Source: OCS155 cluster bacterium AG-333-G23 (lineage in GTDB: Bacteria > Actinomycetota > Acidimicrobiia > Actinomarinales > Actinomarinaceae). Taken from it: a stretch of 64,000 bases of DNA. The stretch spans positions 14,836 through 78,835 of the forward strand of contig QBZE01000004.1 in NCBI GenBank assembly GCA_003282445.1, read 5' to 3'. Positions within the stretch are counted from its first letter, which is position 1, and each line of letters begins with the position of its first letter. Position numbers and translations under genes: made by a program. Of the stretch, positions 2,879 to 56,234 are shown piece after piece. The notes beneath the pieces were generated by a model that searched no databases, was not told the origin of the DNA, and saw only the letters and a program-made list of their open reading frames with translations.

Positions 2879-3682
2879 TCAAACAATAATTTCTCTACCT
2901 TTAATAATTCTTCTTCTAATTGCTGCTGATATTGTATCAACAATTAATACCATTAATATAGTCACAACAAGTACAGTTCCTGCACGTGGAAAGTCTCTAA
3001 ATCTCAATTGATTAATTAATTCTGCACCAACACCACCTGCTCCAACAATACCTAACACAGCAGATGCTCTTAAATTTATTTCAAATCTATATAACCAGTA
3101 GGATGTAATTGTCGGCATTACTTGAGGAACAACACCAAAAAAAAGAACATTAAGTTTAGATCCACCAGAAGATTTTATAGATTCTAATGGACCATCATCT
3201 ATGCCTTCTATTACTTCTGAGGATAGTTTTCCTAAGGTACCTATGGAGTGTATGCCAACAGCTAATGTTCCCGTTAAAGGTCCAAGGCCAGTAATTGGTA
3301 GTAAAACAAAAGCTAATATTAATTCTGGAAAAGCTCTTATAATATTTAAAATTTGTTTTGTAACCCTGCTAATTGTATTAATTGAAGTATTATTAGCTGC
3401 TAAAAAAGATACAGGAAAACTAAAAATAGCACCTATTACAGTACCTGCCCAAGCAATAAATAAAGACTCAGCAACTTTTGGTACAATTCTATCAATTGCC
3501 TCTTGTGATAAATCTAGAGGAAACATTGCTGAGATAAGTATCCATATTTTACCTGGTGCTGATAAAAATCTATCTGGTGTAATTTCAAGTCCAGAAGCTG
3601 ACCATATTGATCCTACAACTATTAAAAAAGTTATTAAATATTTAAGTATTTTTTGATTTAATGGTTGTGAAGGAATCTTCAT
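2879..3682 (-). CDS. phnE: phosphonate/phosphite ABC transporter permease
   Basis: Multi-TM binding-protein-dependent permease with EAA-type loop (IEGIDDGPLESIKSSGGSKLNV). An ATGA start/stop overlap with the upstream permease and an AAGGA RBS favour ATG 3682 over the ORF-track start 3703. Confidence 0.85.
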   Translation of the reverse strand: MKIPSQPLNQKILKYLITFLIVVGSIWSASGLEITPDRFLSAPGKIWILISAMFPLDLSQEAIDRIVPKVAESLFIAWAGTVIGAIFSFPVSFLAANNTSINTISRVTKQILNIIRAFPELILAFVLLPITGLGPLTGTLAVGIHSIGTLGKLSSEVIEGIDDGPLESIKSSGGSKLNVLFFGVVPQVMPTITSYWLYRFEINLRASAVLGIVGAGGVGAELINQLRFRDFPRAGTVLVVTILMVLIVDTISAAIRRRIIKGREIIV

Positions 3683-4461
3683 AATATTTTCCTTCTTAGC
3701 CAAACACTAAACTGTTCAATGCCGATAACTATAACTAGAATAAAAATAATTATTGGAGAGATTCTATCGAATCTCAAGAATATTCTTTGAGTCTCTATAA
3801 TTCTACCAACACCCCCAGCACCAACTAAACCTAAAATTACTGACGCTCTAATACATAGTTCAAATATATATAAAAAATAAGCTGTGAAATTTGGAAGAAT
3901 TTGTGGCAATGCAGAACTAAAAACAGCTTGATTATGCTTAGCTCCACTAGCTTTTGCTGCTTCTAAAGGTCCTAAGTCAATACTGTCAATTGTTTCTGAT
4001 AATAGCTTTCCCATAATAGCCATTGAAAACATAACTAACGCAAGTACACCTGCAAAAGGTCCTAACCCAACTGCAACTGTAAATAACATTGCCCAGAATA
4101 AATCAGGAATAGTTCTAATAAAATTTAAAAAAGATTTATAAATAAAGTAAGTGGTTGTAGTTTGATTTGTAGCTCGTGATGCATAAAAAGATAATGGGAG
4201 TGCAATAAAACAACCAAGTATGCTGGCTAGGATTGCTATTTGAATTGTTTCAATTAGTGCTTGAGAAGCATTTTCTATTGCCCAATCCCATTTTGGATTA
4301 AATAATGTATCTGTAACGAGTCTTCTATTAGCAAAATTTCTCTTAAAATCTTCTAAATTGAATCCAATTTGAAAAAAAGAAAAAATACTGAACGCAATAG
4401 TAAATGGATAACCTATAACAGCAAGTAAAGAAGGTAGTGGCTTCTTAGGTACTTTATTCAT
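3679..4461 (-). CDS. phnE: phosphonate/phosphite ABC transporter permease (second copy)
   Basis: Paralog of the downstream permease with the same EAA loop (IDSIDLGPLEAAKASGAKHNQ). Overlaps phnC by 8 nt. Confidence 0.85.
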   Translation of the reverse strand: MNKVPKKPLPSLLAVIGYPFTIAFSIFSFFQIGFNLEDFKRNFANRRLVTDTLFNPKWDWAIENASQALIETIQIAILASILGCFIALPLSFYASRATNQTTTTYFIYKSFLNFIRTIPDLFWAMLFTVAVGLGPFAGVLALVMFSMAIMGKLLSETIDSIDLGPLEAAKASGAKHNQAVFSSALPQILPNFTAYFLYIFELCIRASVILGLVGAGGVGRIIETQRIFLRFDRISPIIIFILVIVIGIEQFSVWLRRKIL

Positions 4462-5224
4462 CTTCTCCTAATAAATCTGAAGATTTAATAGCTCTTCCAT
4501 ATATATTTTCAAAATCTTGATCACTTACATCATTTACTTTTCCATCGTAAACTAGTTCACCATCCTTTAACCCAATCAATCTTTCACCAAATTCCTTAGC
4601 AAGATCTAAAAAATGAAGATTTACAATTGTTGTTATACCTAATTCTTGATTAATTTGTTTTAAATATTTCATAACAACTCTTGAAGTAATTGGATCAAGC
4701 GATGCAACTGGTTCATCTGCAAGCATTACTTTAGGCTTTTGAGCTAAAGCTCGAGCTATTCCTACTCTTTGTTGTTGACCTCCGGAGAGATTTGAACCTC
4801 TGACATATGCTTTTTCTAATATTTCTACTTTGTTTAAAGATTCGAATGCAATATCTTTATCTTCTTTTGGCCAGAGGCCAAATATAGAACGAATAGTTGA
4901 AACTTGACTCAATCTTCCAGTTAAAACATTTTTTAAAACTGAAGACCTATTAACTAAATTAAAGGTTTGAAAAATCATACCAATATCAGAACGTATAACT
5001 TTTAATTCTTTTTTCGAGGCATTTGTAACATTTTTAGAATCTACTAGTACTTCACCTTCAGTTGGCTTTACAAGATTGTTTATAGTTCTTAAAAGAGTAG
5101 ATTTACCTGCACCAGACATACCTACTATTATTACAAAATCACCTTCTGTGATATCTAAGGTTATATTTTTTAGAGCTTCTACACCACCAGGGTAGGTAAC
5201 GCTAATATTTTTAAATTCAATCAT
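4454..5224 (-). CDS. phnC: phosphonate ABC transporter ATP-binding protein
   Basis: Walker A GMSGAGKST, ABC signature LSGGQQQRV, Walker B VMLADEP. The N-terminus and length are PhnC-like. Confidence 0.9.
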   Translation of the reverse strand: MIEFKNISVTYPGGVEALKNITLDITEGDFVIIVGMSGAGKSTLLRTINNLVKPTEGEVLVDSKNVTNASKKELKVIRSDIGMIFQTFNLVNRSSVLKNVLTGRLSQVSTIRSIFGLWPKEDKDIAFESLNKVEILEKAYVRGSNLSGGQQQRVGIARALAQKPKVMLADEPVASLDPITSRVVMKYLKQINQELGITTIVNLHFLDLAKEFGERLIGLKDGELVYDGKVNDVSDQDFENIYGRAIKSSDLLGEDE

Positions 5225-5232
5225 AATTTATC

Positions 5233-5265
5233 AAAAAAAAACTAGGGCAGTTTTTACTGCCCTAG
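5233..5265 (-). terminator. intrinsic-terminator-like hairpin between phnD and phnC
   Basis: Perfect 10-bp stem CTAGGGCAGT/ACTGCCCTAG (5242..5251 / 5256..5265) with a 4-nt loop. On the - strand it is followed by a T9 run (5241..5233). Confidence 0.7.
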
Positions 5266-5276
5266 TTTTAAATATA

Positions 5277-6398
5277 TTAGTCGTCGTAAAGACCGAATTC
5301 TTCTGCTGCTTCTCTAACAACGTCAAATTCTGAATTAACAGCTGGTACTAAATCAGTCCAACCATAAATCTCATCCATCATTGCTGCACCTTCATCAGTA
5401 GCAATATATGTAGCTAAAATATCATATATTTGTTGCTTAAGATCTGCAGGTAAGTCTGTACGAACTGCAATAACATCATTAGGAATTTCATCAGTTATTC
5501 CAAATGCAATAACTTTTTCACCAACATCAGGGTTAGTTTTTCTTAATGTTCTTCTTGCATCATCATAAGTAACACCGAACTTAGCATCACCATTATAAAG
5601 TCCTGCGATTACACCATCATGTGAACCAGCATATCTTTGAGTGATATCACTTCTGTAATCTATTCCAGCATTTTTAAGTTGTAAAGAAGGATAAAGATAT
5701 CCAGATGTTGAACCTTCTTCAACAAAAAGTACTTCTTCACCTAACATAACTGATAAATCTGCTTCGCAAACTAGTCCCGGACTTGTTGTAACTCCGTCTC
5801 GTACTTCAGGAATCATTCCATCATCACCAAAACCCCAGCCAACTTGTAATGCTTTTACATCAGGTGGCATAGTTTCAGAGCCAGTTACTAAAGTAGCAAC
5901 TCCATCGATGTTTTCATATGCACCAATGACAGGTGTTGACTTACATACACTTGCATCAGTCGTCCACCATGTTCCATGGTAAGAGCCTGAACCATATCTT
6001 ACAGATTTGGCTATTGCCTCAAATCTTGTAGGGAATGCATTCATAGCAGTTACATAACCCAATGTAGCAAAAGCACCAACATCGGCTTGTCCAGAACCCA
6101 TTGCAACTAGTAGACCTGAATAATCACTTGTTACGATTCCTTCAACTTCAATTCCTAAACCATCACTTAAAACTTTCATCATAGGTTGAATGTTATCTAA
6201 TAGTTCAGCTTGTTCTGCACTTGGAACAAAGCCAAAAATAATTTTATCTATAACAGGCGCAGCTGTAGTAGCTGGCTTATCTAGAGTTTCGACTTCTTCA
6301 ACAACTGCAGGTTCTTCTACAACTTCTTCTTCTGCTGCTCCACCACAAGCGGTAAGCACCATAGTTAAAGAAAGTAGAATAAGAAATGATTTTTTCAC
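5277..6398 (-). CDS. phnD: phosphonate/phosphite ABC transporter substrate-binding lipoprotein (PhnD family)
   Basis: Lipobox LTACGG, acidic linker, PhnD-like core (FGFVPSAEQ...GSGQADVGAF). GTG start preceded by GGAGGA. Confidence 0.85.
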   Translation of the reverse strand: MKKSFLILLSLTMVLTACGGAAEEEVVEEPAVVEEVETLDKPATTAAPVIDKIIFGFVPSAEQAELLDNIQPMMKVLSDGLGIEVEGIVTSDYSGLLVAMGSGQADVGAFATLGYVTAMNAFPTRFEAIAKSVRYGSGSYHGTWWTTDASVCKSTPVIGAYENIDGVATLVTGSETMPPDVKALQVGWGFGDDGMIPEVRDGVTTSPGLVCEADLSVMLGEEVLFVEEGSTSGYLYPSLQLKNAGIDYRSDITQRYAGSHDGVIAGLYNGDAKFGVTYDDARRTLRKTNPDVGEKVIAFGITDEIPNDVIAVRTDLPADLKQQIYDILATYIATDEGAAMMDEIYGWTDLVPAVNSEFDVVREAAEEFGLYDD

Positions 6399-6469: not shown

Positions 6470-6913
6470 TTAAAATCCATTTACAGGTATGTATCCATAC
6501 TCTCTATAGATAACTTCGCCATTTTGATCTAAGATTATTGTTATTGGCTGTCCAATTACTTTATATTTATCTCTTATTTCTTGTGTTGATAAACCAATAT
6601 TCAAAACTCCATTTAAATTATTTTTTACCCATGAATTAGTAGAAACCAAATCACTATGAGCTAAAGCCAAAACGTCATATTCTTCAATTAGTTTATCTAT
6701 ATTAGCTTCTAAGACAGGCAACTCCTGTCTGCATGTTCCTCAGTAGTCCGCCCAAAAAACAATTATTGTATTTTTATTAGTTAGATTTTCATTAACAAAT
6801 TCTCCATCTAAATTTTGATATGTTAATTCCATAATAGGAGCAGTAGCCATCTCGCTACTTGAAGTAGATGTACAAGATACTAATAATATAAAAATTAGAA
6901 CTAGTTTTTTCAT
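6470..6913 (-). CDS. TlpA/ResA-like thioredoxin-fold lipoprotein with in-frame TGA (candidate selenocysteine) at the CxxC nucleophile position
   Basis: ATG 6913..6911 gives MKKLVLIFILLVSC (lipobox)...IIVFWADY-TGA(6742..6740)-GTCRQELPVLEAN. This continues in the same frame into ORF 6470..6721 (VIGQPITIILDQNGEVIY, thioredoxin-fold C-terminus). Total is 148 codons including the stop. Confidence 0.65.
6712..6730 (-). promoter_or_regulatory. SECIS-like hairpin downstream of the in-frame UGA
   Basis: The mRNA reads UGA-GGAACAUGC-AGACAGG-AGUUG-CCUGUCU. This is a perfect 7-bp stem with a 5-nt G/U-containing loop; the loop begins 16 nt after the UGA. Confidence 0.5.
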
Positions 6914-21493: not shown

Positions 21494-22930
21494 ATGGAAT
21501 ATTTTGGAGCCATAGATCAAGGTACAACAAGTTCACGATTTATAGTATTTGATAATAAAGGAAATATTGTTGAACAACATCAAGAAGAATTTACTCAATA
21601 TTTTCCTGATGAATATTCAGTTGAACACAATCCAGAAGAAATATGGATAAGCGTAGTTAATTGTATTAACGAAGTATTAAAAAAAATAAATATAAATGAT
21701 ATTAAATCTATAGGCATTTCGAACCAAAGAGAAACAACTGTTGCCTGGTCCAAATCAACAGGTAAACCATTATTTAATGCAATAGTGTGGCAAGATACAA
21801 GAACACAATCAATATGTGACGATATATCCAATAACAAAAATGTTAAGGAAGATATTAAAAGAACAGGTTTACCTATCGCAACTTACTTTTCACTTTCGAA
21901 AATACTTTGGCTTATCGATAATGTATCAGAAGTACAGAGTTCACTAGAAAAGGATGATTTAATTTTTGGAACAGTTGACTCTTGGCTAATTTATAAATTA
22001 AATGGTACTTTTCAAACTGATGTAACTAACGCAAGTAGAACTTTATTATTTGATTTAGATAGTTTGAATTGGAATGATAATTTATTAAATGAATTTAATA
22101 TTCCTACTAATTCTCTTCCTATAATTAAGCCTTCTCTTCATAATTATGGAGAATGCAAAAGTATTTTAGAAGGAATACCAATAACAGCTGTATTAGGAGA
22201 TCAACAAGCATCCTTATTTGGTCAACACTGTTTTAATAAAGGAGAAGTTAAAAATACATATGGAACAGGTTGTTTTGCTTTAACTAATACAGGTGATGAT
22301 ATTATTTATTCAAATAATGGTTTACTTACAACTGTTGCATATAAATATGGTGAAAGAAATGTTAAATATGCATTAGAAGGATCAGTTGCCATAGCTGGTG
22401 CTGCAGTACAATGGTTAAGAGACAATCTCAATCTTATAGAAACAAGTGAACAAATAGAGTCTTGTGCTCTTGAAGATAAAAACAACGGTGGAGTATATTT
22501 TGTTCCCGCTTTCTCAGGTTTGTTTTCACCGCATTGGGATGAAACTGCCAGGGGAGTACTTGCTATCTCACAAGTGATAAAAGATCTTGATGACCCACTA
22601 TTAATAATTGGTTATGCACTAGGATTTGCTGCAGGAACTATTTCAGGATCTTATATAGAATCATCAATAGCTATTGGAGACGTAGTAGTAAGAATATTTT
22701 TACAAAAAGGTAAAAATAGTGATTCACTTACAAAGGAATTAAGATCAAATGGATTTGGAGTAACAGTTCTAAATGGTGAAGGAATGGAAGGCGAAGTTAG
22801 TATAGCTTGGTGTGTTACACCAAGAAAACAAGTAAAAAAAGTACTCAGTATTGTATCAGAAATAAGTCCAAACGCATACGTGACTACTGAAGCTACAAGC
22901 CCTACTTATTTGACAGATAACAAGAAATAG
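21494..22930 (+). CDS. glpK: chimeric ORF: glycerol kinase residues 1 to ~356 fused in frame to the C-terminal half of a UPF0316/DUF2179 membrane protein
   Basis: GlpK hallmarks (AIDQGTTSSRF, NQRETTVAW, AIVWQDTRT, GDQQASLFGQ, TYGTGCF, FSGLFSPHWDETARGV) stop where GLTRG should follow. From ~22560 the sequence matches the last TM plus DUF2179 of UPF0316 proteins (LIIGYALGFAAGTISGSYIESSIAIG...LRSNGFGVTVLNGEGMEG...ISPNAYVT). Confidence 0.75.
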   Translation: MEYFGAIDQGTTSSRFIVFDNKGNIVEQHQEEFTQYFPDEYSVEHNPEEIWISVVNCINEVLKKININDIKSIGISNQRETTVAWSKSTGKPLFNAIVWQDTRTQSICDDISNNKNVKEDIKRTGLPIATYFSLSKILWLIDNVSEVQSSLEKDDLIFGTVDSWLIYKLNGTFQTDVTNASRTLLFDLDSLNWNDNLLNEFNIPTNSLPIIKPSLHNYGECKSILEGIPITAVLGDQQASLFGQHCFNKGEVKNTYGTGCFALTNTGDDIIYSNNGLLTTVAYKYGERNVKYALEGSVAIAGAAVQWLRDNLNLIETSEQIESCALEDKNNGGVYFVPAFSGLFSPHWDETARGVLAISQVIKDLDDPLLIIGYALGFAAGTISGSYIESSIAIGDVVVRIFLQKGKNSDSLTKELRSNGFGVTVLNGEGMEGEVSIAWCVTPRKQVKKVLSIVSEISPNAYVTTEATSPTYLTDNKK

Positions 22931-44746: not shown

Positions 44747-45385
44747 TTAAATGTCTTTTAATTTGTTATTTTTCCAATTATCTATTTCTTTATGATTGCC
44801 AGATAATAATACTTCAGGGACTGTCATTTCTTTATACGTTTCAGGCCTCGTATAAACAGGAAAATCATACGTACCATCTGTAAATGATTCATTTACTAAG
44901 GACTCTGAATTTCCTAAAACACCAGGGACTCTTCGCATTAAAGCTTCCATAAGGAACATTGCAGGAACTTCACCACCAGAAACAACTGCGTCACCAATTG
45001 ATACTTCATAGTCACTATGCATATCTATTATTCTTTGATCAAAGCCTTCATACCTTCCACAAATTATATTTATAGATTCATAAGCGAGTAAATCTTTTAT
45101 TGATTTTTCATCAAGTTTTGACCCTGATGGTGTTAAAAATACATTTATATCTGCTTTGTTATTTAATATTGCATTATCAAGAGGCTCAACCATCATAACC
45201 ATACCTGGTCCACCTCCGTAGGGTGCATCATCTGTTTGCTTATAATTACCAATACCAAAATCTCGTAAATTAGTAGTTTGAAATTTTAAAATATTTTTGT
45301 CTAATCCGTTAGAAATAATTCCAGTTTTTATCCATTCATCAAATAAATTAGGAAATAATGTAATTACATTATATTTTGATAACAT
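44747..45385 (-). CDS. trmD: tRNA (guanine37-N1)-methyltransferase
   Basis: SPOUT/TrmD motifs DDAPYGGGPGMVM, CGRYEGFDQR, SIGDAVVSGGE. Confidence 0.95.
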   Translation of the reverse strand: MLSKYNVITLFPNLFDEWIKTGIISNGLDKNILKFQTTNLRDFGIGNYKQTDDAPYGGGPGMVMMVEPLDNAILNNKADINVFLTPSGSKLDEKSIKDLLAYESINIICGRYEGFDQRIIDMHSDYEVSIGDAVVSGGEVPAMFLMEALMRRVPGVLGNSESLVNESFTDGTYDFPVYTRPETYKEMTVPEVLLSGNHKEIDNWKNNKLKDI

Positions 45386-47243
45386 CTTCTTCCAAGCTTA
45401 ATTCTTCAACTTTCTTTAATTTGGTATAAAGTGTATTTCTGAGATATGGTTTTTTATTATTTTCTTTTATAAGATTAATAAATTCATGATCTGTAGTTTC
45501 TTGACCATGCGATGCTCCAGAAGCTCTACTGATATTTTCGTTAATTAATGTGCCACCTAAATCATTAACACCAGCTTTTAATAAATTTGAAGCTCCATCA
45601 TGTCCAAGCTTAACCCAACTCGCTTGTATGTTGTCAATAAAAGTATTGAAATAGATTCTTGCTAATGAATGGATAAGAACAATTTCATCCCATGTTGGAC
45701 CAGGCATACTTTTTCCCTGAAGGTAAATTGGTGATCCCATATGAACAAAGGGAAGGGGTACTACTTCTGTAAATCCCCTAGTTCTACTTTGGAGTTGCCT
45801 TATTAGTGAATAATGATTTGTCCAAGATTTTATATCATCAATATGTCCAAACATAATAGTTGCTGTTGACTTGATTCCAATTGAATGAGCAACTTCCATT
45901 ACATATGCCCATTCTTTTGATGTGATTTTATCTGGACATAAATATTTTCTAATTCGATCATCTAATATCTCCGCAGCAGTTCCTGGCAAAGTGTTTAGAC
46001 CTGCGTCTTTTAACATAGATAGGTAATCTTCAATACTTTTATTTATTGTCTCAGCACCTTGCCATATCTCTAGTGGCGTGAAACCATGAATATGCATATC
46101 TGGTATTTCTTCTTTAATTTCTTTTACTAGATTTAAATAAAATTCACCTGTGTAGTTAGGATGTATTCCTCCCTGGAGACATACTTCTGAAGCTCCTGAT
46201 TCATATGCTTCCTTTGATCTTTCAACTACTTCTTTTGAATCTAACGAATAAGGAACTTCTTTTAGATCTAAACTCTTTGGGCCTTTTGAAAAACCACAAA
46301 AACCACATTTATAATAACACTGATTCGTATAATTAATATTTCTGTTTTTTACAAAAGTGACTTTATTTCCGTTAATTTTTAGATTTAATTCATTTGCAAA
46401 TTCTGAAATTCTATTTATATATTTTCCTGAAGTTTTAAATAATTCAGTTAAATCATCATCTGTAATTATTTCTTCATCTTCTAATTTTTCAAATATATAA
46501 TTAAATTTATCCGATTTATAATCTGAATCATTATTAAAAACATAATTAAATAATTTTGGAATTGTTTTACCACTACCTGGATACCAGTCTGTAGTCTTTC
46601 TTCTATAACCACGTACATCCCTTGTAAGCAAATAATTAGTGAATTCTTCTTTTTTAAGTATTTCTCTTGCTTCATTAATTTTTAGAATTGGTGATAAAAC
46701 AGTACGTTCATATAGGTTCTTATTGCTTATATTTTGTAACTCAGCAATCTGCTCAGTATTCCAATCTCTTAACATTAAGTCGTTTACACCATGATTAATA
46801 GCATCTAAAGCATCATCAATAGTATTTACATATTTAGATATTAAATGTTCATAATCTGGCTTATAAAGATTGATAAAATTCATATCATCAAGTTTGGATA
46901 CTTGTATTGTTCTAGGTTTTAACCTTGTTAAGACTTCTAATGCAACTTCTTTATTCCCCTTATATGAATAAACTAGTCTTCTTGAATCAGTATTTTTATA
47001 TGTTTCCCAATCTTCATCATTTATTAACCACATAGAAGATTCGTAATTAATATTGTTTGAAATTGTTTGGAAACCTTTTCTGTTAATTTCTACAAAATTT
47101 AGATCATCTTTTATTAAAAAAGAGGAAGTGCCTTCTTTTCTTCTAGAGTTTAAAAATATTTCATTATCATTGTCACAAGGTCTTATTCTCAGATAAGATA
47201 TATTAGCTTGCATATTCATATTTTTTTGGATATCCATCTTCAT
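45369..47243 (-). CDS. cofH: FO synthase CofH-type radical-SAM subunit with ~250-300 aa N-terminal region of unknown function
   Basis: Radical-SAM CYYKCGFCGF at aa 309-318. CofH-like C-terminal half (GGIHPNY...GTAAEILDD...SATIMFGH). Overlaps cofG by 41 nt and trmD by 17 nt. Confidence 0.85.
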   Translation of the reverse strand: MKMDIQKNMNMQANISYLRIRPCDNDNEIFLNSRRKEGTSSFLIKDDLNFVEINRKGFQTISNNINYESSMWLINDEDWETYKNTDSRRLVYSYKGNKEVALEVLTRLKPRTIQVSKLDDMNFINLYKPDYEHLISKYVNTIDDALDAINHGVNDLMLRDWNTEQIAELQNISNKNLYERTVLSPILKINEAREILKKEEFTNYLLTRDVRGYRRKTTDWYPGSGKTIPKLFNYVFNNDSDYKSDKFNYIFEKLEDEEIITDDDLTELFKTSGKYINRISEFANELNLKINGNKVTFVKNRNINYTNQCYYKCGFCGFSKGPKSLDLKEVPYSLDSKEVVERSKEAYESGASEVCLQGGIHPNYTGEFYLNLVKEIKEEIPDMHIHGFTPLEIWQGAETINKSIEDYLSMLKDAGLNTLPGTAAEILDDRIRKYLCPDKITSKEWAYVMEVAHSIGIKSTATIMFGHIDDIKSWTNHYSLIRQLQSRTRGFTEVVPLPFVHMGSPIYLQGKSMPGPTWDEIVLIHSLARIYFNTFIDNIQASWVKLGHDGASNLLKAGVNDLGGTLINENISRASGASHGQETTDHEFINLIKENNKKPYLRNTLYTKLKKVEELSLEEDVIKI

Positions 47244-48327
47244 TTATAACATTACTAACTTTTTCAAACATTTTTTCGTTCAACCATTCTTTATTTATAA
47301 AATTTGGATATACGGGAAGCCGAGGTTTTAAAATTTGACCAGAATTATCTATTTTTATATTTAATTCATTTAAATCAGGCCAGAGATGATCTGGATTTAC
47401 TAAGTCAATCGTTTTTGGTGATATTCCACCTAAGTCATTAATACCACTAAACAAGAAATCATCAACTGATGAGAGAAGATTTGGAGGGACCTGTAATGAT
47501 ATGTGCTTAGGCAGAAATATTCGAACTGTTGCTATTATTCTCAAAAATAGATCATTCACTATTTCAGGATTGTTTTTCATTAATGTATTTCTTTTTGCTC
47601 TAAAGTTTTGAAGTATAATTTCTTGTATTGCTGTATTTTTAAGGCAAAATAATATTAAGTTTTCGATGTCTTGTATAAGCTCATCTTTAGTATCTGTAAT
47701 ACCTAAAAGTAATCCTGTGGTAATTGGATATTTAATTTTTTCTGCATTATTTATTGTTTCCAATCTTTTTTCTATTATCTTAGTTTTTGCTTTGTAATGT
47801 GGTTTACCAGGATTAAAGACATTTTTTGAAAAAGTTTCTAACATTAACCCACCTGAAGGAGAATGATTTTTATATTCTATAATTTCACTTGTAGTCATAA
47901 GGCCTGGATTAGCATGAGGAAATAAATTATATTTATCATTTACTCGTTTCATATTTTCAACTAAATAATCATGAGTAGAGGTAAATCCTAAATCTTTAAG
48001 TTGGGTTTTTGCTTCTTCCCACTTTTCTTCAGGTTTATCACCTAATGTAAAAAGTGCTTCATAGCAACTATTTTCATGACCGACTTTTCCTATAATATCA
48101 ACTTCATCAAAATTTAAATAGGTTCCACCTTCTTTTGGAGACTTTACAAAAGTACAATAACCACAAGAATCCTGACATAACGTTGTCAATGGTATGAATA
48201 CTTTTGGACTAAATGTAATATCACTACCAAATTCTTGCTTTTTTATAGAATACGCTTTTTCAGTTAATTCTTTTGTTGATATGTCACCAAAGAGACATTC
48301 TTCTATATTTTTACTTAATTCAGCCAT
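47203..48327 (-). CDS. cofG: FO synthase CofG-type radical-SAM subunit
   Basis: Radical-SAM CQDSCGYCTF. CofG-like (NPGLMT, GLLLGITDT, ILQNFRAK). Confidence 0.88.
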   Translation of the reverse strand: MAELSKNIEECLFGDISTKELTEKAYSIKKQEFGSDITFSPKVFIPLTTLCQDSCGYCTFVKSPKEGGTYLNFDEVDIIGKVGHENSCYEALFTLGDKPEEKWEEAKTQLKDLGFTSTHDYLVENMKRVNDKYNLFPHANPGLMTTSEIIEYKNHSPSGGLMLETFSKNVFNPGKPHYKAKTKIIEKRLETINNAEKIKYPITTGLLLGITDTKDELIQDIENLILFCLKNTAIQEIILQNFRAKRNTLMKNNPEIVNDLFLRIIATVRIFLPKHISLQVPPNLLSSVDDFLFSGINDLGGISPKTIDLVNPDHLWPDLNELNIKIDNSGQILKPRLPVYPNFINKEWLNEKMFEKVSNVINEDGYPKKYEYAS

Positions 48328-48406: not shown

Positions 48407-49426
48407 TTGAAAAATATATCATTACTTGGTTTTGGAAGAATAGGTAGAGATCTATTTAGACAGAGTATTAACGAGGAAAATATAAATATTGTTTCAGTAT
48501 CTGATGTAGCTGATAAAGATAATCTTATTTATTTACTAAAATATGATTCTATCTATGGACCAATAGACGCTGATATTACTAAGACAGAAAATGGTATTTC
48601 AGTAAATAATAAAGAAACAACTTTTAATAATTGGAAAGATGCTGACGATTCTAACTGGGAATCAATTGACACTGACATAGTAGTTTTAGCTACTGGTAAA
48701 CAACAAGGCTCCGAAGAAGCTCAAAAGCATTTAGAAAAGGGAGCCAAAAAAATTATTATTGCCTCTACTCCAAAAGATAAAGAAGAAATAGATATATTTG
48801 TACCTGGAGCAAATGATGAAGATATCGATTTTTCTAAATCAATAATTTCTCTAGGATCAAATACAGCTAATGCATCAGCTCCAATCATTAAACTAATAAA
48901 CGAAAAAGTAGGAGTTGAACGAGTTTTCATAAATACTATTCATGGTTATTCAAATTCAAATAGACTAGCTGACGTTGCCGGAGAAGGATTTAGACAAAAT
49001 AGAGCAGCAGGTGAAAATATTATTCCAAACAAAACTAGCTCTTCAAATGTTATAGAAAAAGTTCTACCTTTCTTAAAGAATAAAATAACTTCATCTTCCA
49101 TGACTGTACCCATTCCAGATGGAAGTATTCTTGATTTGACGATTGATATAAAAGAAAAAACATCATCCGAAAATATAAATAAAATTATAGAAGATAGCAT
49201 AACGTCAAAGTATTTATCTAACAGAATTGGTATCACTTATGATCCTATTGTCTCATCTGATGTAGTAGGTAATTCTTTATCAGGATTAGTAGATGCAAAA
49301 TCAACAATGGACATCGATGATAAAAAAATAAAAATTTTAATTTGGTTTGATAACGGCTGGGGTTATTCTTCACGAATCCTTGAAACTATAAAAATCTATC
49401 AAAGGGAAGGTACCAATAATGAATAA
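48407..49426 (+). CDS. GAPDH-like protein lacking the catalytic cysteine (predicted non-canonical or pseudo-enzyme)
   Basis: Rossmann GFGRIGR and overall colinearity with the next gene. The active-site box is SLGSNTANASAP instead of SNASCTTNCLAP (Cys149 to Asn, Cys153 to Ala). STGAAKA becomes KTSSSNV and MRVP becomes MTVP (Arg231 to Thr). TTG start. Confidence 0.8.
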   Translation: MKNISLLGFGRIGRDLFRQSINEENINIVSVSDVADKDNLIYLLKYDSIYGPIDADITKTENGISVNNKETTFNNWKDADDSNWESIDTDIVVLATGKQQGSEEAQKHLEKGAKKIIIASTPKDKEEIDIFVPGANDEDIDFSKSIISLGSNTANASAPIIKLINEKVGVERVFINTIHGYSNSNRLADVAGEGFRQNRAAGENIIPNKTSSSNVIEKVLPFLKNKITSSSMTVPIPDGSILDLTIDIKEKTSSENINKIIEDSITSKYLSNRIGITYDPIVSSDVVGNSLSGLVDAKSTMDIDDKKIKILIWFDNGWGYSSRILETIKIYQREGTNNE

Positions 49427-50423
49427 CGTAGCTATAAATGGTTTCGGAAGAATAGGAAGATCTATTTTAAGAATAATTGTTGAGCAAGATTTAGATATAA
49501 ATGTTGTAGCTATAAATGATTTAGGAGATTATGAAAATTTAGCTTATTTATTTAAACATGATTCAATAATGGGAGTTTTAGATGCTGAAATTACTATTAA
49601 AAAAGATATCCTAAAAATTAATGATCGTGATATAAAACTCATATCAATATCTGATCCTTCTAAGTTGCCATGGAAAGATTTAAATGTAGAGATCGTTGTT
49701 GAATCAACTGGAATTTTTACAGATAGTGATTCATTAAATAAACATATAAATGCAGGTGCTAAAAAAGTGCTACTAACCGTGCCTCCTAAAGATGAGATAG
49801 ATGCAACCATTGTTCTTGGTGTAAATGATGATAATTTAACAAGTGAATCTAAATTGATATCTAATGCTTCCTGTACAACTAATTGTTTAGCTCCTATTGC
49901 AAAAGTATTAAACGATAATTTTACTATTCAATCTGGGTTGATGACAACTGTCCATGCTTATACTAATGATCAAGCTTTAGCCGAAACAACACATAAAGAT
50001 TTTAGACGTGGGAGAAATGCTACCCAAAATATTATTCCTACATCTACAGGAGCTGCAAAAGCAGTCGGTATGGTAATGCCAGAATTAAATGGGAAATTAG
50101 ACGGTATGGCAATGCGTGTTCCCGTACCAAATGGCAGTGTTGTAGACCTAATAGTTGAATTAGATAAATCTGTAACAGTTGAGGAAATTAATAAAGCAGT
50201 TAAAAAAGCATCTGAAAATGAACTTAATGGGATATTAAGCTATTCAGAAGTTCCTCTAGTTTCAACAGATATATTGGGGAATCCTAATTCAAGTATATAT
50301 GACGCTACCTCTACAGAAATATTAGAAAATAAACACGTTAGGGTAGTCTGTTGGTATGACAATGAATGGGGTTATTCAAATAGAGTTGTTGACCTTATCA
50401 ATAAGCTAATAGAAGAATATTAA
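49419..50423 (+). CDS. gap: type I glyceraldehyde-3-phosphate dehydrogenase
   Basis: NGFGRIGR, SNASCTTNCLAP, HAYTNDQ, STGAAKAV, MRVPVPNGS, WYDNEWGYS. Its start overlaps the upstream paralog by 8 nt. Confidence 0.93.
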   Translation: MNNVAINGFGRIGRSILRIIVEQDLDINVVAINDLGDYENLAYLFKHDSIMGVLDAEITIKKDILKINDRDIKLISISDPSKLPWKDLNVEIVVESTGIFTDSDSLNKHINAGAKKVLLTVPPKDEIDATIVLGVNDDNLTSESKLISNASCTTNCLAPIAKVLNDNFTIQSGLMTTVHAYTNDQALAETTHKDFRRGRNATQNIIPTSTGAAKAVGMVMPELNGKLDGMAMRVPVPNGSVVDLIVELDKSVTVEEINKAVKKASENELNGILSYSEVPLVSTDILGNPNSSIYDATSTEILENKHVRVVCWYDNEWGYSNRVVDLINKLIEEY

Positions 50424-52020: not shown

Positions 52021-52267
52021 TAAATTCTACTGAAGAATCAAGACCTTCTTCATCTGCTGCAGCTTGAGCAACTGTTCTTATAGCTCTTGCTACTCTACCT
52101 CTTTTTCCAATTACTCTTCCCATATCATCTGGTGAAGTTCTTACTTCAATTTGTACAGATTCTTCACTCGATGACGCTATGTCAACCTTGACAGATTTTT
52201 TATCTTCAACAATTTCTGAGACAATATATTCGACAACATTTTTTACTATTGTTCCTGTTTCACTCAT
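52013..52267 (-). CDS. KH-domain RNA-binding protein (UPF0109/YlqC)
   Basis: GRVIGKRGRVARAIRTV. ATGA overlap with the rpsP stop. Confidence 0.88.
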   Translation of the reverse strand: MSETGTIVKNVVEYIVSEIVEDKKSVKVDIASSSEESVQIEVRTSPDDMGRVIGKRGRVARAIRTVAQAAADEEGLDSSVEFID

Positions 52268-55484: not shown

Positions 55485-56234
55485 ATGAAAATAGCTGTAT
55501 GCGCAAAACAAATACCAGATCCAGCTAATCCTATTGAATATTCGAATGGTAATGTTGTTAGACCCGATGAACAAGTTCTAGATGATACTGATAGATACGG
55601 TATTGAAGTTGCTTTACAACTAAAAGAAAAATATGATGCTGAAGTTACAGTGATTTCAATGACTAAAGTTGGAACTGAAAAAGGGGTCCAGCAGGCATTA
55701 CAAATGGGCCCAGATAAAGCTTTAATATTAGAAGATGAATCACTAGTCGGTTCTAATTCCTTAATGACTTCTAATGTGCTAAGTGAACTTGCAAAGAAAG
55801 TTGATGCTGACATTATAATTTTTGGTACAGAATCTACAGATGGTTACTCTGGAGTTGTACCACAACAAGTTTCAAGAATTTTAAATGTTCCATGTATTTC
55901 ATATGTTAAAAATATTGAGATAGATGAAAGTGTAACTTTAACAAGACAGACTATTGAAGGATCAGAAAAAATTAATCTACCAGAAAAGTGTGTTATTTCT
56001 GTTACAGCAAGTGGAGTTGAACCAAGATATCCAAATTTTAAAGATATTATGGCAGCAAAAAATAAACCTGTTGAAATTATTACAAAAAATGATATTGAAT
56101 TTGATACTGAACAAAATATGAATTTTGTAGAAATAAAAGATATCTCTACATCAAAACAAGGAGAAAAGATTACTGACGAAGGCGAAGCTCACCAAATAAT
56201 AATTGATAAGTTAAAGGAAATTAAAGCAATATGA
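55485..56234 (+). CDS. etfB: electron transfer flavoprotein subunit beta
   Basis: MKIAVCAKQIPD..., IIFGTESTDGYSGVVP. ATGA overlap with etfA. Confidence 0.9.
   Translation: MKIAVCAKQIPDPANPIEYSNGNVVRPDEQVLDDTDRYGIEVALQLKEKYDAEVTVISMTKVGTEKGVQQALQMGPDKALILEDESLVGSNSLMTSNVLSELAKKVDADIIIFGTESTDGYSGVVPQQVSRILNVPCISYVKNIEIDESVTLTRQTIEGSEKINLPEKCVISVTASGVEPRYPNFKDIMAAKNKPVEIITKNDIEFDTEQNMNFVEIKDISTSKQGEKITDEGEAHQIIIDKLKEIKAI

Follow-up and report, generated by a model that had tools for sequence, protein, structure and literature searches.

The gene considered here lies on the minus strand (6470..6913) of a 64-kb stretch of DNA from OCS155 cluster bacterium AG-333-G23 (contig QBZE01000004.1), the whole of which is referred to as the window, and its reading frame is interrupted by a TGA codon at 6742..6740. 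Comparison with its homologues makes it very probable that this TGA is a genuine selenocysteine (Sec) codon, accompanied by a functional Sec insertion sequence (SECIS), in a lipoprotein of Candidatus Actinomarinales. An original prediction had proposed a selenoprotein at this position from the letters of the window; the selenoprotein had in fact already been catalogued in 2005, in this same protein, and what the present analysis adds is the assignment to Ca. Actinomarinales, the lipoprotein nature of the product, the presence of the Sec form in nearly all of the order, a SECIS backed by covariation and an order-wide synteny with phn genes.

Direct translation of the window gives a minus-strand frame that runs from the ATG at 6913 to the TAA at 6472..6470, in which the TGA at codon 58 is the sole in-frame interruption; the frame, coordinates and sequences that had been predicted from ATG 6913 were all verified by this translation. 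The complete selenoprotein gene would comprise 147 codons including Sec58, followed by the TAA stop, and would encode a TlpA/ResA-like thioredoxin-fold lipoprotein. The predicted protein begins MKKLVLIFILLVSC, a putative lipoprotein signal peptide (6872..6913) whose lipobox Cys14 is encoded at 6874..6872. The UGA stands in the context ...NTIIVFWADY-TGA-GTCRQELPVLEAN, where it is predicted to supply Sec58 of a U-G-T-C redox motif (6740..6742); the predicted resolving cysteine of this UxxC motif, Cys61 (codon 6731..6733), is invariant in close and distant homologues.

A protein search returned 294 homologues, 120 of which were listed, and nearly all of the listed matches are 147 residues long and 69-99% identical. 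In the 30 homologues that were aligned, position 58 is given as tryptophan throughout, and the DNA behind these “W58” entries is a TGA codon in every locus checked; the tryptophan is there because metagenome gene callers translated the low-GC contigs with code 4. Other gene callers cut the gene into fragments of 57 and 83 amino acids (P0125 and P0128 are examples). A scan of species-representative genomes recovered the gene from six Candidatus Actinomarinales / Actinomarina genomes, all with TGA, and a seventh TGA copy was found on a 1.7-kb contig (L015; RGHK01000185.1) of a “Proteobacteria bacterium” metagenome-assembled genome, which holds the gene and phnD. Since synteny and sequence indicate Actinomarinales, this contig is probably misbinned and of Actinomarinales origin. 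A metagenome scan added 80 more loci. The streamlined, low-GC actinobacterial type of genome that had been predicted for the window is borne out as Ca. Actinomarinales.

Of the 101 loci of the family, 97 have TGA, over a range of 49-99% protein identity, and the remaining four have a Cys codon. The TGA-form loci span many samples, assemblers and single-cell genomes; in all 97 the frame is undamaged on either side of the TGA, and purifying selection acts on both flanks. The Cys forms (L017 with TGC, L018-L020 with TGT) are 35-44% identical and non-syntenic, L018-L020 adjoining gyrA and a DUF3566 gene. They have the FWADY-C-xTC context in common with the window protein, as in FWADYCPTC (P0124, TGC) and FWADYCITC (P0127, TGT), and more distant homologues carry a canonical WCxxC motif. 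Across 29 homologues, both close and distant, W54, C61 and P123 do not vary, and the U58 column coincides with the first Cys of CxxC in the Cys homologues and in solved structures, so that the TGA does sit at the nucleophilic Cys of a TlpA/ResA-type CxxC as had been claimed. The alternation of TGA and Cys at this one column is the classical signature of a Cys/Sec pair.

Immediately downstream of the UGA, the mRNA can form the hairpin AGACAGG-AGUUG-CCUGUCU (6712..6730, minus strand), with its 5' arm at 6730..6724, its loop AGUUG at 6723..6719 and its 3' arm at 6718..6712. It starts 9 nt past the UGA, with the loop starting 16 nt past it, and the predicted fold is the perfect 7-bp hairpin originally drawn, with the same spacing and an energy of -9.9 kcal/mol. 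The hairpin was seen in all 97 TGA loci and was absent from the Cys forms. In an alignment of 67 distinct 60-nt sequences, the six core base pairs form in 67 of 67, and the loop is AGUUG or AGUUA in all, closed by two invariant G-C pairs. At one stem pair, 47 sequences have C-G and the other 20 have G-C; the switch comes about by paired replacements, Q to E and V to L (RQELPVL to REELPLL), neither of which is ever seen singly. Two further stem pairs pass through the series A-U, G.U and G-C, and the fourth pair is G-C or G.U, with compensatory (double) changes seen at three stem pairs. A covariation score as high as that observed was reached in none of 500 column shuffles, and when the 3' arm was slid as a control, pairing fell from 93.6% to 39-64%. 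Furthermore, among 11 diverse sequences, synonymous divergence is 0.139 in the seven hairpin codons compared with 0.383 elsewhere (p = 0.003), and the codons fixed by the hairpin are CAG, GAG, CCT and GTC, where the rest of the same gene favours CAA, GAA and GTT. It is clear from these alignments that the hairpin is a conserved RNA structure, evidently kept by evolution and confined to UGA forms. The original prediction had left the question to an alignment of homologues: the TGA column and the compensatory changes fell in its favour, and the Cys relatives, carrying TGC or TGT, were the ones without the hairpin.

The published model of the bacterial SECIS (bSECIS) has a loop of 3-9 nt, an upper stem of 4-16 bp, G in the first two loop positions, a UGA-to-loop distance of 16-37 nt and a minimum free energy of -7.5 kcal/mol or below (PMC13188914). 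With its 5-nt loop, 7-bp stem, 16-nt distance and -9.9 kcal/mol the window hairpin falls inside all four published ranges, and its loop positions 2-3 are G then U. Like the E. coli fdhF-type SECIS and the bSECISearch consensus, it is a stem-loop within the open reading frame (ORF), directly 3' of the UGA and around 20 nt away, with G then U early in a small apical loop; it differs from them in its short stem of 6-7 bp, in having no conserved bulge or lower helix, and in its own invariant AGUUR loop. An extended lower helix under the hairpin can be drawn in some sequences but is not conserved, and it is not claimed here.

The protein family was assigned from sequence profiles. With U replaced by C, the protein scored above the Pfam cut-offs for AhpC-TSA (36.5 bits, cut-off 26), Redoxin (35.5, cut-off 26.6) and Thioredoxin_2 (30.3, cut-off 27), and it matched the solved structures 2lja, 3ia1, 3erw, 4nmu and 1jfu with E-values of 1.7e-7 to 5e-4. 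The closest profiles are those of the extracytoplasmic thiol-disulfide oxidoreductases StoA, ResA, DsbE and TlpA, of which none reached its NCBIfam equivalog cut-off (StoA 41 vs 210 bits, ResA 39.6 vs 170, TlpA 28.5 vs 230, DsbE 28 vs 123); scores so far under the cut-offs place the protein in a broad TlpA-like group and in no characterised subfamily. The specific equivalogs ResA, StoA, TlpA and DsbE (CcmG) were rejected on these scores and on the neighbouring genes, which are cinA and phnDCEE and not those of cytochrome c maturation or sporulation. A peroxiredoxin (AhpC/TSA) proper was also rejected, there being no T-x-x-C/U and the motif being a thioredoxin-type U-G-T-C at the CxxC position; the AhpC-TSA match therefore reflects the shared fold only. 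The active-site pattern, C/UxxC after FW-x-x-[WY], is present, together with the conserved cis-Pro loop (P123).

Cys14 is invariant in the homologue alignments. Each of the 93 complete N-termini opens with M-[KR]-K and a hydrophobic stretch, has a Cys somewhere in positions 13-17 and continues with a linker rich in S/T, and the strict lipobox pattern is passed by 80 of them. The N-terminus is thus, as far as its sequence can tell, of the lipoprotein type and indicative of an extracytoplasmic location, which together with the Pfam scores upholds the prediction of a lipobox lipoprotein of thioredoxin fold. One homologue stands apart: in P0122 (L022:173-598), on a 1-kb contig, a COX15/CtaA-like transmembrane stretch replaces the lipoprotein N-terminus, and this could be an assembly chimera, a code-4 read-through call or a real variant.

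Compared with Cys-type ResA, StoA, TlpA and DsbE (CcmG) proteins (PDB 4nmu, 3erw, 1jfu, 2lja), the window protein has the same domain, active-site position (WxxxC/UxxC) and cis-Pro loop, and probably the same membrane-anchored extracytoplasmic topology, but it has Sec in place of Cys, Tyr rather than Trp before the U, and a gene that lies by a phn transporter and not among cytochrome c maturation genes. It also resembles the TlpA-like (cd02966) predicted UxxC selenoproteins in its extracytoplasmic-type thioredoxin fold, in the change of the first CxxC Cys to Sec and in a coding-region bSECIS just downstream; this likeness is to the descriptions of such proteins rather than to reference sequences. 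Predicted prokaryotic selenoproteins have been listed as “Thiol-disulfide isomerase-like protein”, “Thiol:disulfide interchange protein” (PF13098) and “Prx-like thiol:disulfide oxidoreductase” (PF00578) (PMC13188914; PMC2398784), and UxxC selenoproteins of TlpA-like and thioredoxin-like type are established predicted families.

If the mechanism established for bacteria applies, the hairpin at 6730..6712 would be the SECIS element in the mRNA, and SelB carrying Sec-tRNA(Sec) would bind its apical part as the ribosome nears the UGA at 6742..6740. SelB would then hand selenocysteine to the A site, allowing translation to go on past the UGA. The product would be a prolipoprotein of 147 residues that, after signal cleavage and lipidation of Cys14, would be held at the outer face of the cytoplasmic membrane. 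The mature protein would presumably act there as a TlpA/ResA-type thiol-disulfide oxidoreductase, in which Sec58 makes the attack on a disulfide or sulfenate of the substrate and Cys61 resolves the mixed selenenylsulfide; re-reduction of the enzyme might fall to a CcdA/DsbD-type electron shuttle in the membrane.

The lineage itself is reported to possess the genes for Sec insertion. In a preprint, “Actinomarina, resolved” (2026), 84 of 84 complete Actinomarina genomes have selC by tRNAscan-SE, selA and selD by KofamScan and a divergent, sub-threshold selB, and about five selenoproteins are predicted in each, among them a SelD in Sec form whose N-terminus is MRLT; a thioredoxin-like target goes unmentioned (bioRxiv 10.64898/2026.04.03.716425). 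A low-GC, Sec-containing SelD, MRLTQYSHGSGuACK, also stands in the Sargasso Sea supplement (PMC1088965). Used as a query, it returned more than 100 close homologues, and on marine contigs of GC 0.33, a single-cell assembly among them, SelD reads MRLTQYSHGSG-TGA-ACK. Two of these SelD loci (L103:440-1465 and L104:9929-10954) have a downstream stem-loop of their own, with a loop that differs from AGUUR. On long contigs the low-GC SelD was called N-truncated, at 317 residues; conserved around it are nadE, a class-IV aminotransferase, an alpha/beta hydrolase, a GT4 glycosyltransferase and RmuC.

One detail of the preprint concerns the position of these genes. In its Supplementary Table 8, selA, selC and selD are placed at 0.109, 0.890 and 0.911 in the genomes described as “selC inside the HVR”, and at about 0.91, 0.10 and 0.08 in the unflagged genomes. 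The positions are mirror images (1-x), and the reported relocation of selC may be an artefact of orientation.

A number of observations weigh against a Sec codon with a functional SECIS. A 61-nt stretch folds no better than its shuffles (z = -0.45), and the A-U pair at the base of the 7-bp stem is present in only 37 of the 67 sequences. A single-sequence fold so unexceptional makes the lone sequence only suggestive and places the weight on the comparative data; the original argument from the hairpin is sustained by its conservation and geometry, but not by its energy. When Rfam was searched, no SECIS family was matched at gathering thresholds in the whole window, and at E-values up to 10 the region 6600..6850 gave no SECIS family, its sole match being a chance one to PsrR1. 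The proposed check against SECIS models was answered favourably by the published bSECIS ranges, and Rfam, whose models cover bacterial SECIS elements poorly, gave no match; the Actinomarina preprint likewise has no matching Rfam family (bioRxiv 10.64898/2026.04.03.716425). AlphaFold, run on a 32-sequence alignment, gave a pLDDT of 51, with only the order of secondary structure consistent, and at this low confidence the fold assignment rests on the sequence profiles. In addition, no CcdA/DsbD partner was identified.

None of selA, selB, selD and tRNA-Sec was found in the 64-kb window, nor in around 610 kb of loci surrounding the gene, and ARAGORN reported no tRNA-Sec in the window or in any locus; window ORFs of SelA-, SelB- or SelD-like length proved to be ProS, CofH, GAPDH, IF-2 and others. 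The genome is about 1.1 Mb and the window roughly 6% of it, so the absence from the window is unsurprising. No identical accession prefix placed SelD and the window gene in the same assembly, when the prefixes LUML, LULZ, CACIVO and JAYKCT for SelD were compared with LUMM, LUMR, LUMS, LUMT, LULN, LULT, CABXDL, CABWZY, CACFFJ and JAYKCV for the gene, so that the link between gene and machinery within one genome rests on a preprint that has not been peer reviewed. The complete Sec machinery that was said to be implied is reported for the 84 complete Actinomarina genomes but was not seen in the window or loci.

A first alternative is Sec-independent read-through, in which a near-cognate or suppressor tRNA would insert Trp, Cys or Arg and the hairpin would be a generic stimulator. 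The inserted amino acid cannot be read from sequence alone, the machinery is missing from the window and loci, and public gene callers do give “W” at this codon, though as an artefact of code 4. This explanation is nevertheless improbable. The codon lies at the position of the catalytic nucleophile, where Cys is the only alternative residue in homologues, and a Trp in place of the nucleophile would abolish activity, which is hard to square with the strong conservation of the gene. Furthermore, the hairpin fits the geometry of a SelB-type bSECIS, selA, selB, selC and selD are reported for the lineage, and matching low-GC contigs carry a SelD of Sec type.

Damage to the gene is less probable still. 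A pseudogene, or a sequencing or assembly error, could have made the TGA from a Cys codon, given that TGC or TGT to TGA is a single-base change and that one window alone would be insufficient to tell. The same TGA, however, is repeated in 97 independent loci across the identity range and in many samples, assemblers and single cells, the downstream ORF is intact and conserved, and the RNA structure co-varies; on the comparative sequence data this reading is already refuted, and the chance nonsense mutation that had been called improbable is indeed so. A split gene, made up of a 57-residue lipopeptide and a separate C-terminal protein started at TTG 6721, is just as hard to credit. Both pieces are listed as ORFs, and some gene callers annotate them as the fragments of 57 and 83 residues, but the cut would run through the active site of a thioredoxin fold, residues 59-64 (GTCRQE, with the invariant Cys61) are conserved in frame between the TGA and the TTG, and neither a start codon nor a ribosome-binding signal is conserved at TTG 6721.

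A last alternative is that TGA is reassigned throughout the genome. Among 58 large ORFs of the window the stops are TAA in 42, TGA in 8 and TAG in 8, and etfB (TGA 56232..56234) and rpsP (TGA 52266..52264, minus strand) are correct examples, as had been asserted, of TGA used as a normal stop. Thirteen other TGAs in the window have at least 40 open codons on both sides, all in shadow frames of known genes, and the TGA at 6742..6740 is the sole credible in-frame TGA of the 64 kb. The tRNAs of the window, as predicted by ARAGORN, are those for Gly, Cys and Val only. Reassignment to Trp (code 4) or Gly (code 25), although it would suit the low GC of the genome (about 30%) and the choice of code 4 by metagenome gene callers on short contigs of the organism, is already refuted and of negligible probability, with those eight ORFs ending in TGA at their expected ends, no second coding-frame TGA in 64 kb and no tRNA with a UCA anticodon in the window.

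With the Sec reading preferred, the earlier record of the protein can be considered. Zhang, Fomenko & Gladyshev (2005, Genome Biol 6:R37) listed AACY01807685 as a “Thioredoxin” selenoprotein (PMC1088965), and its sequence is given as MELTYQNLDGEFVNENLTNKNTIIVFWADYuGTCRQELPVLEAN... in the supplement. By a count made by eye it is identical to residues 28-147 of the window protein at 116 of 120 positions (96.7%), and over the TGA and the hairpin the two DNA sequences are the same. Five more entries of 2005 (AACY01088208, AACY01056680, AACY01095051, AACY01261884 and AACY01197381) cover variants recovered here, and the REELPLL and SVCRQELPV variants from metagenomes are also in that list. The 2005 list gives no organism, names the family just “Thioredoxin”, and begins two entries at Met28, missing the lipoprotein signal; synteny and covariation analysis are absent from it. 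Next to this protein the same supplement lists a second low-GC thioredoxin-like selenoprotein family, with the motif EFYSDYuLGCTASK (AACY01000927, AACY01011298 and AACY01037136; PMC1088965). The sequence of the window protein is not present as text in the GOS 2008 supplements.

With the protein on record since 2005 and the use of Sec in Actinomarina reported in 2026 (bioRxiv 10.64898/2026.04.03.716425), current understanding is unchanged by the present analysis. Its practical worth lies mainly in annotation, as databases give a Trp or a split gene here and an N-truncated SelD in low-GC contigs. The 67-sequence hairpin alignment is a clean, covariation-backed example of a bacterial SECIS missed by current Rfam models, and it could seed a model for other Actinomarina selenoproteins. 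In biological terms, these organisms are among the smallest free-living marine bacteria, and one recoded codon is very probably spent on an exported redox enzyme, for which the whole Sec-insertion pathway would therefore be maintained.

The gene also has a constant position on the chromosome. It is followed on the same strand, after 71 nt, by a gene for a substrate-binding lipoprotein of the PhnD family (5277..6398; TIGR01098, 146 bits vs cut-off 112), then by phnC (4454..5224; TIGR02315, above cut-off) and two phnE permease genes (3679..4461 and 2879..3703; TIGR01097, above cut-off), all on the minus strand. In every TGA-form locus with available flanks the order is the divergent recA-cinA, then the gene, then same-strand phnD-phnC-phnE-phnE, and this synteny persists at CinA identities as low as 53%. 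No terminator-like site was found in the 71-nt gap, and the selenoprotein gene and phnD are probably co-transcribed. Between phnD and phnC, by contrast, there is a strong 14-bp terminator-like hairpin with a T-run (5269..5238, minus strand), which suggests that phnD and the selenoprotein gene upstream may be expressed above the rest of the transporter. The PhnD-like protein, which has two Cys, fits TIGR01098, the generic family for phosphate, phosphite and phosphonate; the putative selenate type, TIGR04553, was rejected because the protein scores 55 bits where 250 are needed.

The selenoprotein and the phnDCEE transporter may be functionally linked. That the two form a single functional module across the order, a PhnD-family ABC transporter headed by the selenoprotein gene, would go a good deal further and seems unlikely. 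In such a module the role of the Sec-lipoprotein might be to hold the binding lipoprotein of the transporter in its reduced state, or to act at the cell surface on the ligand. Another possibility is the import of a selenium oxyanion, or of some other redox-active oxyanion, by the “phosphonate-type” transporter. If true, the module would be a main reason for a full Sec machinery in a 1.1-Mb genome.

A few other ORFs of the window call for comment. The 624-residue ORF at 45369..47243 (minus strand) matches CofH (FO synthase) only over residues ~242-612, leaving around 240 N-terminal residues outside the match, and the cofG ORF (47203..48327, minus strand) overlaps it upstream. At 21494..22930 (plus strand), a match to glycerol kinase ends near residue 356 of 478 and residues 355-468 match a PRK04164-type hypothetical protein; this ORF may be a fusion or a truncated glpK. 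Finally, the ORFs at 48407..49426 and 49419..50423 (plus strand) are tandem type I glyceraldehyde-3-phosphate dehydrogenase paralogues with a slight overlap, the first scoring under the equivalog cut-off.

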